Positions 39,740-45,697 are shown, numbered from the stretch's first letter. The stretch: DNA of 64,000 nt from an uncultured Thermococci archaeon (GCA_964595645.1 CAZQQT010000003.1:128001-192000); one strand, 5' to 3'. A program made the numbers and translations. The notes: a model not told the origin generated them from the letters alone.

Positions 39740-39832
39740 CTACCCCGCTGCCATAAATGTCGCAATACTCAGCACTATCGCCGCTACCACCATTGCGATC
39801 AACAACGCATAGAACTTACTTTCTCCATTCAT
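39740..39832 (-). CDS. 30-aa single-TM micro-protein
   Basis: MNGESKFYALLIAMVVAAIVLSIATFMAAG; fills the gap tail-to-tail with the previous gene. Confidence 0.5.
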   Translation of the reverse strand: MNGESKFYALLIAMVVAAIVLSIATFMAAG

Positions 39833-39954
39833 TTGAACCACTGCTATTTCTAGTAGTAGTTATATTTATAGTTTTTTTAACTCGAAAACTGAATAAATTA
39901 GTTATTCTAACTTTCCAGTTGGAAAGAAATTTTATTTTTGTGGAAAATTAACAA

Positions 39955-40119
39955 CTACAGAATGCCTACCAAAATAAGCAATAATCCTATCACTACAGTA
40001 GCTGTAGCCTTTACATTCTTGCTCCCAGGGAAGTTTATCACTCGCGTGAGCTGTGGAACAAAGAACGACGCAACTCCTAGTACAACTAAAAGAATGCCAA
40101 TGATCGTTATCGGTTCCAT
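39955..40119 (-). CDS. 54-aa two-TM small protein
   Basis: MEPITIIGILLVVLGVASFF..VVIGLLLILVGIL; GGTGA RBS upstream. Confidence 0.65.
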   Translation of the reverse strand: MEPITIIGILLVVLGVASFFVPQLTRVINFPGSKNVKATATVVIGLLLILVGIL

Positions 40120-40497
40120 TTTTTTCACCGTTGCTTATGTTAGAAACGATGTAATAAAAATGTTTTTTCTAGAAAACTATGTTATAATAGGAAGTCTAGT
40201 TCCATGAATGAAAATTCCATATTGTCTTAGTATGCAAAAAAGAAAGGCTTAAGAATTTCATGTAACATTTTAAAGCTAAAGATAATGTAACCGTGAAGTA
40301 TCATCCAAAGAAGGAGGAATCGACGATAACTACGAACGAAGGAAGTGGAAGGAGATGAACATGTACTGATCGCACTGAGAACAAAAAAAGGTACTTTAAA
40401 GTAAGACCTATGTCAATTTCTGAGGTATTGAATAGCCATACATCAGAGAGAAAAATTTAAGAAGATTCCCTCCTACAACTACATAGGAGGAAATGCC

Positions 40498-40896
40498 ATG
40501 ATTGGAACTCTACCTGAAGATATTCTGGAAGCAGTTTTGGAGACGATACCAGTCGAATTTTCTGTTCTTGATAAGAACGATAAAGTGCTGGCATGGAACA
40601 AGCATAAAACACGTATATTTACGCGGCCAAAAAGCGTTGTCGGGAGAGATGTACGTGACTGCCATCCAAAGGAAAGTCTCCACAAAGTAGAGCGAATTTT
40701 GGAGGAGATGAAAGAGAGAAAAAGGGACAAAGCTAGATTCTGGATTGATTTGAACATTAACGACGAAACTCACAAGATTCTCATCGAGTACTACGCACTA
40801 CGAGATGAAAATGGCGAGTACCTAGGCTGCCTGGAAGCGAGCAGAGACATTACCGATATCCAGTCGCTTACCGGTGAAAAGCGGCTGCTGGAGTAG
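40498..40896 (+). CDS. stand-alone PAS-domain protein (PAS_10/DUF438-type)
   Basis: ILETIP..D, GRDVRDCHP.ES, FWI, RDE.GEYLG.LE..DIT. Confidence 0.85.
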   Translation: MIGTLPEDILEAVLETIPVEFSVLDKNDKVLAWNKHKTRIFTRPKSVVGRDVRDCHPKESLHKVERILEEMKERKRDKARFWIDLNINDETHKILIEYYALRDENGEYLGCLEASRDITDIQSLTGEKRLLE

Positions 40897-41904
40897 GTGT
40901 CGCAGGTGACGCAACTACGTCAAACTAAGGAGAAAGAGGTAAAAATCACAGTGATAGACTACGATGAAAATCAATCCAAGGAGAAAGAGATAGCGAACAT
41001 CAAAGAATGTTTCCCGTTCAAAGAGACTCCTACAGTTACGTGGATAAATATTGATGGGATTGCTCCCTCTATCATTGAAACATTAGGGAGTCATTTTGAA
41101 CTTCATCCGCTCATTCTTGAGGATATCACAACCTCTCAACGTCCGAAGATAGAAGAGTCGGAAAACTACATTTTTATCATCGTGAAAATGCTTCATGAAG
41201 AGGACAGTGAGCTACAAATAGAACAAGTGAGTATCATTCTCGGTCCAACTTTTGTCATTTCTTTTCAAGAGGGAGAAGGGGATATCTTCGATGGAATAAG
41301 AGAGAGAATTACGCATAAAAAGGGCCGTATACGGAGTAGAGGTGCAGATTATCTCGCATACAGCTTAGTAGATGCTATCGTAGATAACTATTTCGTGCTC
41401 CTGGAACATGTGGGAGAGAAAATAGAGGATTTAGAGGAAGAGTTGGTAGGGGATCCATCACCCAAAACGCTTCACCGTATCCACGCTCTAAAACGTGAGA
41501 TACTTTTCCTCCGAAAATCAGTATGGCCTCTACGAGAAGTTATCAGTAGATTGGAGCGGATAGAATCATCCCTTATCCAGGAATCAACAGAGATATACTT
41601 TAGAGACGTGTATGAACATACCATCCAGGTCATTGACACAGTAGAAACGCACAGGGACATGCTTTCTGGAATGCTTGATATCTATCTTTCCAGCGTGAGC
41701 AATAAGATGAACGAAGTTATGAAAGTACTCACTATTTTCGCGTCGATATTCATCCCTCTGACATTCATTGCTGGTATTTATGGAATGAACTTCCAGTATA
41801 TGCCTGAATTAGCGTGGCGCTGGGGATATTACGTCGTGCTCTTGGGGATGGGAATAGTTATTGCGGTAATGCTCGTATATTTCTGGCGGAAGGACTGGTT
41901 GTGA
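40897..41904 (+). CDS. corA: Mg2+/Co2+ transporter CorA (N-terminus possibly shortened)
   Basis: LHPL.LEDI..QRPK, MNEVMKVLT, YGMNF.YMPEL. Confidence 0.93.
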   Translation: MSQVTQLRQTKEKEVKITVIDYDENQSKEKEIANIKECFPFKETPTVTWINIDGIAPSIIETLGSHFELHPLILEDITTSQRPKIEESENYIFIIVKMLHEEDSELQIEQVSIILGPTFVISFQEGEGDIFDGIRERITHKKGRIRSRGADYLAYSLVDAIVDNYFVLLEHVGEKIEDLEEELVGDPSPKTLHRIHALKREILFLRKSVWPLREVISRLERIESSLIQESTEIYFRDVYEHTIQVIDTVETHRDMLSGMLDIYLSSVSNKMNEVMKVLTIFASIFIPLTFIAGIYGMNFQYMPELAWRWGYYVVLLGMGIVIAVMLVYFWRKDWL

Positions 41905-41910
41905 ACACTA

Positions 41911-42127
41911 TTACCATTGAAGCTCAATCGCATCCACGGGGCAGCTCTCGGCAGCCTTCTCCACACACTCTGATTCGTCGGGCACTTCTCCCGTATGAGC
42001 GTTCTCCTGCTGATACTCTTCAACTAATACTGATTTCCCTTCAGCATTCTCTTCAAATACGTAGGGACACAGTCTGTAACATACCACATGCAATACACGT
42101 ATCCTCATCTATCATTACTTTTACCAT
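41911..42127 (-). pseudogene. monocluster ferredoxin, frameshifted at about 42078-42083
   Basis: MVKVMIDEDTCIACG in one frame continues as CYRLCPYVF..AAESCPVDAI in another; total length 217 nt. Confidence 0.8.
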
Positions 42128-42150
42128 CTTTTCACCTTTTACAATTTAAT

Positions 42151-43061
42151 TTAATGTTTCCAATCCACGTATTTTTCCCCTCGTAACTCAGCGATGAGAT
42201 TTAACGCTGCCTTTGCTCCTTCTCCCACCGCAGCACCGATTTGTCTCACCTTGCCGGTACAATCGCCGGCCGCGTACACCCGTGGCACCTGCGTGTATTG
42301 GGTCTCGTCAACGACGAGTCGTCCGTCACGAATTGTGATTCCGAGAGCCCGAGCGAAATCCAACGAGCCACTCGTCCCCTCTGCAATAATCAATCCTTCC
42401 ATTTCTTTTACCCCTTCGTCAAACTTTACTCCCTGAAACATCTCATCGCCATATATACCTTTTATTCTATTTTTGTTTATGGGAATATTCCGTTTTTCTA
42501 ACTGTTTTTGTAGGATTCCACTCACGTCTAAATCCTTACCATTCGTGTAAATTGTCACGCCCTGTGTGTATTCGTACAGTTCTATCGCTTCTTTTACAAC
42601 AAGATCTTCAGAACCAAGTACTCCCACGGTTCTATCTCGGAAGAGAGGAGCATCACAGGTCACACAGTAACTTACACCTTTTCCTTCATATGCTTCTATT
42701 TCATCTATTTGTGGTTTTTGTGTTGGATCCCCGGTGAGAGTATTAACGATCTGGCAATATACGCGTTCGTAGCAGTTTCAACTCTGTAATTCCCATTATC
42801 TATTTTAATTAAAAGTACCTTTTCTCTTTTTACTTCTGCACCAAATTTTTCTGCCTGTCTTTTTCCGCGTTGAAGTATCTCTTTCCCGGAAATTCCTTCT
42901 GGAAATCCAAAATAATTTTCTATCACCCTCACCTTTTCCAAAAGTTTATCCGGCTCATCCAATACCAGTGTATCAAAATCTGCTCTCGATGTATATATCG
43001 CTGCAGATAGACCTGCCGGGCCGCCTCCAATTATCACTACATCGTATTTATTCTCACTCAT
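42151..43061 (-). pseudogene. trxB: thioredoxin reductase-like flavoprotein, frameshifted in an A5 run (42715-42719)
   Basis: GGGPAGLSAA in the first part. One extra A gives KPQIDEIEAYEGKGVSYCVTCD joining the second ORF, which carries YAAGD..QI..AVGEG. Confidence 0.85.
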
Positions 43062-43105
43062 CTCTATCGCTTTTTATTTTCAATACGTAGTTTGGGGCAC
43101 AATGT

Positions 43106-43744
43106 TCATTCTTCCTCAAATATCACTACGACCTTTTCCACATCCCCCCGATGCTCGATTTTCTCGTGTATATCTTCTTTAATCGCATTGGCAAACTGGT
43201 GATCCTCGACAATGTCGATAGTAATCGTTACCGTTCCATCATCCACCGTTACCTCTTTGATCAGTTCTGTTCGAACGACATCCAGTCCTGTCATGGGGTT
43301 CATGACATGTCTGAGACGCTTTTTTACTACCTCCTCTGTTGTAGGCTCTCGTTCCGTTACGAGTCCATGTCGTTCCTCGTAATCCCGTATTGCCTCACGT
43401 AGCCCTTCCACCGCGAGTACAGAACAGTGTGCCTTTATTGACGGTAGACCTCCAAGTTCCTCAGATGCGTCCTGCCACGTGATCTTTTTTGCCTCGTCAA
43501 TGGTCTTTCCCTTCGCCATTTCTGTGATGATTGATCCTGTGGCAATATTCGACGCACAACCGTAGGACTCAAACTTGATATCTGTGATTTTATGTGTCTC
43601 CTCATCTACCTTAATGTACACAGATACCATATCACCGCATGCAGGACTGCCTTCTTGGGCCTTTCCGTCAGGATCCTCCATTTTTCCTACATTTTTTGGA
43701 TTTTTGAAATGCTCTATTACCGTCTCACTATATGGTGTCTTCAT
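43106..43744 (-). CDS. iscU: IscU/NifU-N scaffold fused to a C-terminal DUF59-like domain
   Basis: HF.NP.NVG, PACGD, YGCAS, KAHCS; C-terminal L..V.NP.TG.DVV. Confidence 0.88.
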   Translation of the reverse strand: MKTPYSETVIEHFKNPKNVGKMEDPDGKAQEGSPACGDMVSVYIKVDEETHKITDIKFESYGCASNIATGSIITEMAKGKTIDEAKKITWQDASEELGGLPSIKAHCSVLAVEGLREAIRDYEERHGLVTEREPTTEEVVKKRLRHVMNPMTGLDVVRTELIKEVTVDDGTVTITIDIVEDHQFANAIKEDIHEKIEHRGDVEKVVVIFEEE

Positions 43745-43748
43745 ATAT

Positions 43749-44918
43749 TTATTCCTCCTTTCCTAATGGACTTATCTCCCTCAATCTCTCCACGATATCG
43801 GATACAGTGGTAACAACGATATCAACTTCATTCATGGTGTTGAACCGCCCTAGCGTAAACCGTACCGAGCCATGAGCCCGTTCATGGTTCCCCCCGATGC
43901 CCATTATTACATGGCTCGCCTCAAGCGAGCGACTGAAACATGCTGAGCCGGTGCTGACCGCGACGCCTCGCATATCCATGTGAAGCGTAATAGATTCGCC
44001 TTCTACGTAATGGAACGTGATGTTCGCATTGTGCGGTACTCTCTGCTCTCTGGAACCGTTCAAGGTTACATCGGGGATCTCTGAGAGAATACGATCAATG
44101 AGATGATTCCTCATTTTCTCCAGTTTAGTGTTCTCTTTAGGTGTGACCAGCTCTACTGCTTTTGCGAACCCGATGGCGCCGGGAATATTCTCGAGTCCTC
44201 CCCGCGTATTGAACTCCTGGAATCCACCATCCATTATCTTGGTGAGAGGCGCCCCTTCACGTACGTAGAGGCCTCCAATCCCCTTGGGGCCATGAATCGT
44301 ATGTGCCGATACTGTTATCATATCTACTGGTATCTCCTGAACGTCTATAGGCACTCGTGTGAAGGTATGGGTCGCGTCCGTGTGGAACAACACGTTGTTT
44401 TCCTTGCATATCTCCGCGATCGTTTTGATATCCTGCAGCGTTCCTATTTCTTGGTTCGAGTGTTGTATAGACACGAGAATTGTCCTCTCCGTTATTGCAT
44501 CATCCAGTTGATCGAGGTCCACGAACCCGTCACTGTCAACATTGAGCTGTGTCACCTCAAACCCTTCTTTCTCTAGTGTTTTCGCACTGTGGAGCACGGG
44601 GAAATCTTCTATTTTTGAGGTAATAATATGGGTTCCCTTTCTCTCTCCGAGTTTCTTAGCGACTCCTTTAAGTGCGAGGTTGCTGGATTCTGCAGAACCC
44701 GAGGTGAAGATGATCTCGTTCGGATCGGCACCGAGTGTTGTGGCAATTGTTCCCCGTGCACTGTCAAGACTTTCCTTGGCTTCGACACCCAACGAGTATC
44801 CAAACTCGGAGGTAGGTACCGTGTATGTATTGAAAAAGTACGGTTTCATCGCCTCGAGCACTCGTTCGTCCATTCTTGTGCTGGATGCATTGTCCATGTA
44901 AATAAAGTTGTCATCCAT
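43749..44918 (-). CDS. iscS: IscS/NifS-like protein with a degenerate PLP site
   Basis: YMDNAS, FTSG..ES.N, GPKG, STGSAC retained; SAHT replaces SAHK and IEDFPV replaces EHxAV. Confidence 0.85.
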   Translation of the reverse strand: MDDNFIYMDNASSTRMDERVLEAMKPYFFNTYTVPTSEFGYSLGVEAKESLDSARGTIATTLGADPNEIIFTSGSAESSNLALKGVAKKLGERKGTHIITSKIEDFPVLHSAKTLEKEGFEVTQLNVDSDGFVDLDQLDDAITERTILVSIQHSNQEIGTLQDIKTIAEICKENNVLFHTDATHTFTRVPIDVQEIPVDMITVSAHTIHGPKGIGGLYVREGAPLTKIMDGGFQEFNTRGGLENIPGAIGFAKAVELVTPKENTKLEKMRNHLIDRILSEIPDVTLNGSREQRVPHNANITFHYVEGESITLHMDMRGVAVSTGSACFSRSLEASHVIMGIGGNHERAHGSVRFTLGRFNTMNEVDIVVTTVSDIVERLREISPLGKEE

Positions 44919-44926
44919 CGTACCAC

Positions 44927-45349
44927 CTATGAGATAAACAAGGTAATTTTAGACTCTCTCGCTTCTTTAATGTAGGTTCCTACTGCACAGTACTCGGTGA
45001 TTATGTCATCACGCAGATCGTCCTTCTCAAGCCCCATAATGTCCATGGTCATATCGCAGGCAAGTATCTTACCACCTAACTCTACGTAATCCTGTAACAT
45101 CTCCTCCAGCGATCGCACATTCGCCTTCTTCATCCTCCGATTCAGTAGCCATTTTCCAAGGCCGAGGAAGTGCATTCGAGAGAGGGGTCCTTGCTCCAGC
45201 TGCCCCTTTTTGAGCCTTTCAAGTCCCCAGAATGTGAAGTACATCGATACATCCATGCCCATGGCAAGCGCACCATTGCCGATGATGAGGGCACTGTAGA
45301 GTTTGTCCATCTCACCACTCTGTACGATCAGCGTGACCTTCTCTGTCAT
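44927..45349 (-). CDS. DsrE2/DrsH-like sulfur carrier
   Basis: SG.MDK..A.AMG..V.MYFTFWGL, AC.MTMDIMG. Confidence 0.9.
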   Translation of the reverse strand: MTEKVTLIVQSGEMDKLYSALIIGNGALAMGMDVSMYFTFWGLERLKKGQLEQGPLSRMHFLGLGKWLLNRRMKKANVRSLEEMLQDYVELGGKILACDMTMDIMGLEKDDLRDDIITEYCAVGTYIKEARESKITLFIS

Positions 45350-45350
45350 C

Positions 45351-45590
45351 TTACTCCTCCTCGGGAATCTTGATTGTGATTATCCACGTACCATTCTTCT
45401 CCTCGACGCTTACAAGCTCTAACCCAAGAGACTCCACTGCCATAGGGATCTCCTTTTTGGATGCAGGGTGATCGCCGATGATCTCGACGATATCGCCAGG
45501 ATTAGCCTTCCTCACAGCCTTCCGGGTTTCTACCAGCGGAACTGGACATGTCTCTCCTACCACTGTTATCTTTTTTTTCACAATTTTCAC
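45351..45590 (-). CDS. tusA: TusA-family sulfurtransferase
   Basis: GETCPVP, G..VE...DHP. Confidence 0.9.
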   Translation of the reverse strand: MKIVKKKITVVGETCPVPLVETRKAVRKANPGDIVEIIGDHPASKKEIPMAVESLGLELVSVEEKNGTWIITIKIPEEE

Positions 45591-45697
45591 CTATTCCTCT
45601 TCTATATTTATGTGCGTGCAATCTATATAAATTTTATTCGTCGCTAAGTTAACTGATAAAAGAATAAGTTTTATATGCGTAGAAAAGAAGCTCCACT

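Follow-up and report, generated by a model that had tools for sequence, protein, structure and literature searches.

A Lys-less IscS homologue in a four-gene tusA-dsrE2-iscS*-iscU::DUF59 module of an uncultured Thermococci archaeon and other strict anaerobes

A 64,000-nt stretch of DNA from an uncultured Thermococci archaeon (GCA_964595645.1, CAZQQT010000003.1:128001-192000; hereafter the window, meaning the whole stretch at its full length) carries tusA, dsrE2, iscS* and iscU::DUF59, four genes that form a conserved unit. The product of the third gene, IscS*, is, judged from its sequence, an IscS-fold protein whose pyridoxal phosphate (PLP) site has been exchanged for another set of residues that is itself strictly conserved. 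The module is widespread and horizontally mobile in strict anaerobes, and the window copy was apparently acquired horizontally. As the best reading of the four genes together we propose a relay in which sulfur would pass from DsrE2 and TusA to the loop cysteine of IscS* and on to IscU, a proposal on which our confidence is evenly balanced.

The module bears on the question of how strict anaerobes supply sulfur to their iron-sulfur (Fe-S) clusters. Many of these organisms are without a cysteine desulfurase, and the sole answer so far has been direct use of sulfide. The module is common to methanogens, organohalide respirers, syntrophs and acetogens, and couples what appears to be a non-catalytic IscS to dedicated sulfur carriers; the relay, if true, would be a third way of feeding sulfur to the IscU scaffold. 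The window itself is of smaller value, being one more copy of the module beside a normal IscS-IscU pair. Among the other hosts, Methanosarcina is genetically tractable.

The pocket and fold of IscS*

IscS* was aligned with an active homologue from the Protein Data Bank (PDB) and with the canonical paralogue encoded in the same genome, and E. coli numbering was assigned via conserved motifs. The initial annotation of the window had described an IscS homologue with altered PLP residues and a retained persulfide-loop cysteine, and the alignment bore out this description: the PLP Lys and four other PLP contacts are gone, and Cys327 of the loop is present. In E. coli numbering the exchanges are His104 to Asp, Asn155 to Gln, Gln183 to His, Lys206 to Thr and Thr243 to Leu, so that the pocket residues of the window protein, in its own numbering, are Asp105, Gln156, His184, Thr207 and Leu242. 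At the level of motifs, EDFPV replaces EH.. and SAHT replaces S.HK, with STGSAC(FS) and GSVRF unchanged. Arg353 (E. coli Arg354), the C-terminal LRxISPL and the IscU-binding region at the C-terminus are likewise retained.

Residue frequencies were counted in 71 IscS* orthologues, drawn from relatives and from GTDB species genomes, and in 25 canonical sequences obtained in that search. Among the IscS* orthologues, position 104 (E. coli numbering) is Asp in 70/70, position 155 is Gln in 71/71 and position 183 is His in 70/71, and the loop Cys and Arg354 are each found in 70/70. Position 206 is Thr in 63 sequences, Leu in five, and Ser, Val or Asn in one each, with Lys in none, while position 243 is variable (Leu, Val, Ile, Met and others). 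The canonical relatives have every PLP-contact residue in its canonical form (25/25). Because the same changes are fixed across the 71 orthologues, the substitutions are not due to chance, and the fixation of the replacement residues argues for a pocket rebuilt under selection rather than for plain decay.

A rebuilt pocket might hold something other than PLP. It could bind a small ligand or a metal such as Fe2+ or Zn2+, and IscS* would then either donate iron to IscU or activate sulfide for it. Asp105, Asp181, His184 and His206 of the window protein would be the candidate residues, with Glu104, His179 and His209 close by; in solved IscS structures these positions line one pocket. The invariance of Asp (70/70), Gln (71/71) and His (70/71) while positions 206 and 243 drift is consistent with such a site, as is the insertion of a ferritin gene into the operon of four loci. 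However, a polar network filling an empty pocket would yield equal conservation, and we attach little likelihood to a metal or ligand site as the explanation.

The overall fold of IscS* is predicted to be that of an ordinary IscS. An AlphaFold model (predicted local distance difference test, pLDDT, 86) matched human NFS1, E. coli IscS and A. fulgidus IscS with template modelling (TM) scores of 0.88-0.91 at 41-42% identity. With FeS_nifS, the best-scoring NCBIfam desulfurase model, IscS* reached 452.1 bits, where the cut-off is 530.75, and it likewise stayed under the cut-offs of all other desulfurase models; the canonical paralogue on contig 4 scored 540.7 bits and cleared the NifS equivalog cut-off. 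The window protein contains the EDF/NQEIG/DATH/SAH(T)/STGSACFS signature of the Lys-less, IscS1-type clade, and is at least 63% identical to the members of this clade versus no more than 54% to any Lys-containing IscS or to the one intermediate, Lys-to-Leu form (L053). In a neighbour-joining tree without support values, all IscS* sequences are monophyletic on one long stem, and their sister is a protein from genome G007 in which only the Lys is changed, to Leu, and which is already paired with IscU::DUF59.

The locus of that sister form, L053 (G007:C30, 5929-8350), encodes the Lys-to-Leu IscS, in which every other PLP contact is preserved, and, downstream of it, IscU::DUF59 and another IscU. 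Together with L054 of the same genome, which is described below, it is a possible transitional form. The best PDB sequence matches of IscS* belong to the recent 9wep-9wfy series, in which a cysteine desulfurase of 406 aa that has the Lys was solved in about nine variants; entries 9wfy and 9wg1 include an IscU, and no paper describing the 9wep-9wfy structures was found.

Partners and distribution of the module

The TusA protein of the module scored 74.6 bits with its Pfam model (cut-off, 28.6) and has a CPxP motif containing Cys15; Cys15, Pro16 and Pro18 are invariant in 25 orthologues. It fell below all NCBIfam equivalog cut-offs for TusA, YedF and YeeD, and its nearest solved relative is YeeD/TsuB of S. 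thermophila (57 bits), with E. coli TusA at 31.6 bits. DsrE2 scored 125.7 bits with Pfam DrsE_2 and has relatives in the PDB (2qs7, 3pnx). A single cysteine, Cys98, is invariant in its 31 orthologues, the second being variable. With 69.5 bits against a cut-off of 210 for the NCBIfam equivalog SulfCarrDsrE2, the window protein is by this measure a member of the family and not a dissimilatory DsrE2 equivalog. Both genes are the sole representatives of their families, TusA and DrsE_2, in the genome.

IscU::DUF59 consists of an IscU domain (NifU_N, 149.8 bits), whose best PDB match is A. fulgidus IscU (4eb5_C), and a DUF59/FeS_assembly_P domain at residues 138-205 (40.7 bits; cut-off, 23.5). The cluster ligands of the IscU domain, Cys36, Asp38, Cys63 and Cys107, are conserved in 70 orthologues, over which the DUF59 portion is weakly conserved. 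SufT/CIA2-type DUF59 proteins carry a conserved Cys. Residues 130-212 of the window protein contain no Cys, so that this SufT/CIA2-type residue is lacking.

We found the four-gene cassette in at least 69 genomes of strict anaerobes, at 63-77% identity and in two gene orders, tusA-dsrE2-iscS*-iscU and iscS*-iscU-tusA-dsrE2, with the pairs tusA-dsrE2 and iscS*-iscU staying together. Its hosts come from both domains and include Methanosarcina, Methanococcoides, Methanomassiliicoccales, Methanobacteriaceae, Dehalococcoidia, Anaerolineae, Syntrophales, Acetobacterium paludosum, a Eubacteriaceae isolate and Actinomycetota. Within the order to which the window belongs, TusA, DsrE2 and IscU::DUF59 accompany IscS* at 14 of the 14 complete loci, at 59-75% identity; a fifteenth locus, L055, is cut by the contig end after iscS* and lies outside this count. 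A wider survey took the best 80 loci from the 185,579 species of GTDB, with a neighbourhood radius of 6 kb, and divided into 55 IscS* loci (63-71% identical) and 25 canonical loci (45-52% identical). At least TusA was present within the radius at 51/55 IscS* loci, and DsrE2 and IscU::DUF59 were present too at most of them, whereas the canonical loci had a plain IscU, with TusA/DsrE2 at 0/25. These counts confirm the earlier prediction that tusA, dsrE2 and iscU are conserved beside IscS homologues with EDF and SAH(not K) signatures. Clustering of the flanking open reading frames (ORFs) revealed no further universally linked neighbour gene. Copies are far more numerous in the protein database, where, among the matches listed, at least 120 clusters have 70% or greater identity to IscS*.

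By gene content and order the window module corresponds to the isc1 cluster of Methanosarcina acetivorans, which is functionally uncharacterised. That cluster comprises MA0811 (HIT), MA0810 (SirA-like), MA0809 (DrsE), MA0808 (IscS1) and MA0807 (IscU1, 24 kDa) (Deere et al. 2020, BMC Microbiol, PMC7585200, Fig. S1 and Table 1). The same four genes are thus found in the same order, and the size of IscU1, about 24 kDa, equals that of an IscU plus an extension. IscS1 has the STGSACFS loop and is missing PLP residues including the Lys; a mode of action like that of A. fulgidus IscS was suggested for it as a possibility, and the carrier genes were given no role (PMC7585200). Our own comparison drew on loci from other Methanosarcina genomes, M. 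acetivorans itself not being included, and in these IscS* and IscU are 67-69% and 69-74% identical, respectively, to the window proteins. The Methanosarcina loci have a HIT-family gene upstream, whereas the window has broken trxB and ferredoxin genes downstream. We found no functional study of the module in the literature, and the four-gene module is not mentioned in recent reviews of minimal Fe-S systems, including PMC13066941.

Could the cluster be a functionless, decaying remnant, with IscS* a dead enzyme nearing loss? Two of the six genes at the locus are frameshifted, the segment is missing from a genome of the same genus, and recombinant M. acetivorans IscS1 was insoluble, forming inclusion bodies in E. 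coli (PMC7585200). Nonetheless, the four core ORFs are intact and 63-77% identical across phyla, with invariant functional residues, and Table 1 of PMC7585200 lists IscS1 among the proteins detected in M. acetivorans by proteomics (the text reports consistent detection for IscS2 and IscU2 only). This degree of conservation leaves the remnant explanation close to refuted, and we regard it as scarcely credible.

Sulfur supply to IscS* and IscU

Because IscS* is without five PLP contacts, any sulfur flow through the module must begin elsewhere. In the relay that we favor, IscS* would carry out no cysteine desulfuration and would act as a docking and cluster-ligating partner of IscU, like the Lys-less IscS of A. 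fulgidus. DsrE2 would load or buffer TusA, and TusA would hand sulfane sulfur, in the form of a persulfide or thiosulfonate, to the loop Cys327 of IscS*. From IscS* the sulfur would move to IscU, where cellular ferredoxin would reduce it to cluster sulfide. In favor of this relay are the constant association of TusA and DsrE2 with IscS* and the invariance of Cys15 and Cys98.

A DsrE-type protein and TusA coupled through single cysteines are a known relay format. A DsrE3A-TusA pair of Metallosphaera cuprina was reportedly described by Liu et al. in J Biol Chem in 2014, and YeeE-YeeD (TsuA-TsuB; PDB 8K1R) is a TusA-family thiosulfate system (PMC11073785). YeeE-YeeD and the M. cuprina pair serve uptake or dissimilatory sulfur oxidation, whereas the carriers in the window are encoded beside an IscU scaffold. 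The E. coli complexes of IscS with TusA and IscU (3LVJ, 3LVL) share with the module the IscS fold (TM, 0.88-0.90), the partner families and a mobile Cys loop. E. coli IscS, however, is PLP-dependent, and the persulfide that it gives to TusA is made from cysteine, while IscS* lacks the five PLP contacts.

The A. fulgidus protein offers a functional parallel. It had been cited in the initial annotation as a Lys-less IscS that has no desulfurase activity and ligates the cluster on IscU; published accounts confirm all of this, the ligand being a Cys (PMC7585200, PMC13066941). In the A. fulgidus IscS2-IscU structures (PDB 4EB5, 4EB7, 4HVK), a Lys-less IscS fold is seen with its loop Cys ligating the [2Fe-2S] cluster on IscU. 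Asp199 takes the place of the Lys in this protein (4R5F is the D199K mutant), and Thr does so in IscS*. A. fulgidus IscS matched IscS* with 330.7 bits and 41-42% identity, no nearer than E. coli IscS or NFS1, and for this reason we place it outside the IscS* clade, as a functional analogue. The Lys of A. fulgidus IscS was probably lost independently of that of IscS*. The minimal archaeal systems described to date are MIS (IscS-IscU only) and SMS (SufBC) (PMC13066941). Like the window module, MIS has a core of two components, IscS and IscU, and dispenses with chaperones and A-type carriers, and it raises the same question of sulfide versus cysteine, but as described it has an active desulfurase and is without TusA, DsrE2 and the DUF59 fusion.

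Support for a desulfurase-independent role of IscS* comes from the sister genus g3 (17 species, all with SufB), which has 11 full-length IscS* carriers at an E value of 1e-150 or better, plus two contig-cut fragments. Except in G015, IscS* is the sole IscS/NifS/SufS-type homologue of the g3 carriers, their other PF00266 protein being a PhnW/AGXT-like aminotransferase. Since IscS* stands alone in nearly every carrier of this genus, a true desulfurase is not needed in the same cell. This does not extend to the organism studied here. The cysteine independence that had been proposed fails for the organism as a whole, because the genome also carries one canonical, Lys-containing IscS-IscU pair besides the module.

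A contact between TusA and IscS*, also put forward earlier, was addressed by complex prediction. The IscS*-TusA pair scored 0.32 versus 0.00 for the best of three controls, with at least 85% contact agreement between runs and a partner pLDDT of at least 84. Of the solved complexes 58/80 attained that mark, as did 2/110 mismatched pairs; with scores of 0.60 or less, only 7 of the 80 solved complexes passed, plus both passing mismatches. The support is weak. Because the E. coli IscS-TusA complex (3LVJ) has already been solved, the pass may reflect likeness only.

If TusA and IscS* do not exchange sulfur, IscS* could be purely structural and cluster-ligating. Cluster sulfur would then be free sulfide, and TusA/DsrE2 would serve otherwise, for example in sulfane buffering or for thio-cofactors. 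The modest complex score is in keeping with this view; so is A. fulgidus IscS, which serves as a ligand without supplying sulfur, and so is the fact that all carriers of the module are anaerobes of sulfidic habitats. Minimal archaeal systems can, according to current reviews, use sulfide directly (PMC13066941). A supply of free sulfide leaves unexplained, however, why TusA/DsrE2 accompany the Lys-less form (51/55 loci, in two gene orders and many phyla) and none of the 25 canonical loci, and why both carrier cysteines are invariant. We consider it unlikely, if still to be reckoned with.

Sulfur might also flow outward. IscS* would in this case receive a persulfide from a canonical desulfurase or a rhodanese and pass it to TusA/DsrE2, as a distribution hub. 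A flow from IscS to TusA is established in E. coli (PMC2854127, PMC11302665), and a canonical IscS is encoded elsewhere in the genome studied here. At L054 (G007:C143, 51-1613), moreover, a module-type DsrE2 (69% identical) lies directly 5' of an active-type, fully canonical Lys-IscS, so that the carriers could be receiving sulfur rather than donating it. On the other hand, in the g3 carriers apart from G015 there is no canonical IscS, NifS or SufS that could load IscS*, and a hub that lacks the catalytic entry step would be redundant beside IscU. An outward flow seems to us improbable.

Both the E. coli precedent and the arrangement at L054 also weigh against the relay from DsrE2 and TusA to IscU, as do several further observations. 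With a canonical IscS-IscU pair in this genome, the module is unnecessary for cysteine-based assembly here. IscS* loci of Methanococcoides and of a Halobacteriota metagenome-assembled genome have no TusA/DsrE2 within 6 kb, and one Methanobacteriaceae IscS* locus has no IscU within this distance. The relay model leaves the origin of sulfane sulfur in sulfidic, anoxic cells unexplained, and no general sulfur-entry component was found, YeeE/YedE occurring in 1/34 genomes of the order.

The YeeE/YedE genes are those of a split transporter pair at G000:C1:85205-86290 (L146, L147), in this genome only among the 34 of the order, and the module TusA is the only TusA/YeeD-family partner available to them in the genome. 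YeeE/YedE was rejected as a general point of sulfur entry, since the remaining 33 genomes of the order, 14 module carriers among them, lack it; thiosulfate import via YeeE, confined as it is to one genome, is therefore not a general answer.

A more far-reaching version of the proposal would make the module a self-contained Fe-S synthase that works without cysteine or a desulfurase. TusA/DsrE2 would import inorganic sulfur (polysulfide or thiosulfate), the IscS* pocket would provide a putative metal/sulfide site (Asp105, Asp181, His184 and His206), and iron and sulfur would meet on IscS*-IscU, a chemistry that would be new for ISC-type systems. This we think quite unlikely.

Locus layout and genome context

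The genes at the locus were identified by reading of ORFs and of Pfam/NCBIfam profiles, and their positions are given in Table 1. Six tightly spaced, co-oriented genes had been described initially, and the genes, their order and their positions stood (41911-45590, minus strand). The tight spacing held for tusA, dsrE2, iscS* and iscU::DUF59, which are intact and separated by 1-8 nt; the gaps from iscU to trxB and from trxB to ferredoxin are 44 and 23 nt, and trxB and ferredoxin are each frameshifted in the assembly. On reading the sequence between iscU and trxB we saw no oligo-T terminator. A putative promoter for tusA was recognized upstream of the gene, with its TATA-like element about 34 nt 5' of the GTG start, and a GAGG ribosome-binding site lies 5-8 nt ahead of the start.

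Table 1. Features of the tusA-dsrE2-iscS*-iscU::DUF59 locus (window coordinates)
Feature	Position	Strand	Product or evidence
tusA	45351-45590	-	79 aa, GTG start; Pfam TusA, E 5.5e-21
dsrE2	44927-45349	-	140 aa; Pfam DrsE_2, E 2.1e-36
iscS*	43749-44918	-	389 aa; Pfam Aminotran_5 (PF00266), E 8.4e-70
iscU::DUF59	43106-43744	-	212 aa; Pfam NifU_N, E 5.6e-44, and FeS_assembly_P, E 3e-10
trxB-like flavoprotein gene, frameshifted	42151-43061	-	two ORFs with TIGR01292 matches
single-cluster 4Fe-4S ferredoxin gene, frameshifted	41911-42127	-	Pfam Fer4_15 and Fer4_13
archaeal promoter-like element	45624-45640	-	A-rich stretch resembling a B recognition element (BRE), and TTTATATA; read from the sequence

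The trxB-like gene is broken into two ORFs, 42705-43061 and 42151-42663, which match positions 1-114 and 133-297 of TIGR01292 with 89.9 and 89.4 bits, respectively (cut-off, 343). The break falls at an A5 run (42715-42719) and is consistent with the loss of one base; the downstream frame carries the expected GKGVSYCVTCD with its CVTC redox motif. Read-through by selenocysteine or pyrrolysine was rejected because the downstream part sits in a different frame, with no in-frame stop at the break. The NADPH motifs of thioredoxin reductases (TrxR) are GGGxxA and HRRxxxR. The corresponding sites of the trxB-like protein read LGSEDLV and YTNGKDL and are unrecognisable as such, and the protein resembles pyridine-nucleotide-independent, ferredoxin-linked TrxR-like flavoenzymes.

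In the ferredoxin gene the frame shifts at about 42076-42082, inside the CxxCxxCxxxCP motif (CIACG/CYRLCP), in a manner consistent with a two-base loss in a TGTGT run. In a three-frame reading, the start MVKVMIDEDTCIACG and the continuation CYRLCPYVFEE fall in successive frames, and the Pfam Fer4_15/Fer4_13 matches begin only at profile position 11. Assembly error may lie behind both breaks, the homopolymer break above all.

TrxB and ferredoxin had initially been counted as parts of the system, an assignment that we rejected. The two genes are absent near the module at the 14 same-order loci and at 54/55 GTDB loci, the exception being a distant trxB copy 3 kb from the module in L068; here they are frameshifted, and an intact TrxR gene is located elsewhere in the genome (C6:10738-11643). 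The pair is a local, decaying add-on outside the module.

The assembly is 1.97 Mb in size and 99.96% complete. McrA is absent from the genome, and no SufB/SufD homologue was found in it, in families f3 and f4 or in the same-genus genome, while SufB is present in 17/17 genomes of genus g3. An archaeon that relies solely on IscS/IscU-type systems is unusual. Our sample of the phylum contained 133 species, 97 of them from one family; these tallies and the lack of McrA suggest a non-methanogenic member of the Thermococci/Methanofastidiosales-Theionarchaea lineage. IscS* was found in 15/133, all within the window's order but in 0/5 other genomes of its own family. In G001, which belongs to the same genus, the cupin gene comes immediately after gcvT-gcvH-PAP2, in inverted orientation, and about 6 kb (window positions ~39800-45650) are missing, corresponding to the four core genes together with ferredoxin, trxB, corA and the PAS_10 gene. 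In the neighbour-joining tree the window IscS* does not cluster with the copies from its own order, and the core genes are richer in GC (0.455-0.488) than the genome on average (0.432), a difference that is no more than suggestive. Taken together, the absence from G001, the tree placement and the higher GC content indicate horizontal acquisition. A mobile island marked by flanking repeats was sought and rejected, only short matches at chance level being present.

Lineage-specific insertions near the module encode ferritin, Asp/Glu racemases, 2-oxoacid:ferredoxin oxidoreductases, a HIT protein and PAS proteins. Ferritin genes lie between iscS* and iscU::DUF59 at four Anaerolineales loci, L063 (3421-3912), L086, L098 and L106, which links the module to iron, and at three Dehalococcoidia/Chloroflexia loci the same position is occupied by one or two genes of the Asp/Glu-racemase family. 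In the window, a gene for a small PAS_10 protein that is translationally coupled to corA (40498-41904) lies beside the module, and in genus g3 a 279-aa PAS protein is encoded after iscU::DUF59 at 10 loci (for example, L041, 7927-8766). The PAS genes near the module may represent a shared sensor theme or a coincidence.

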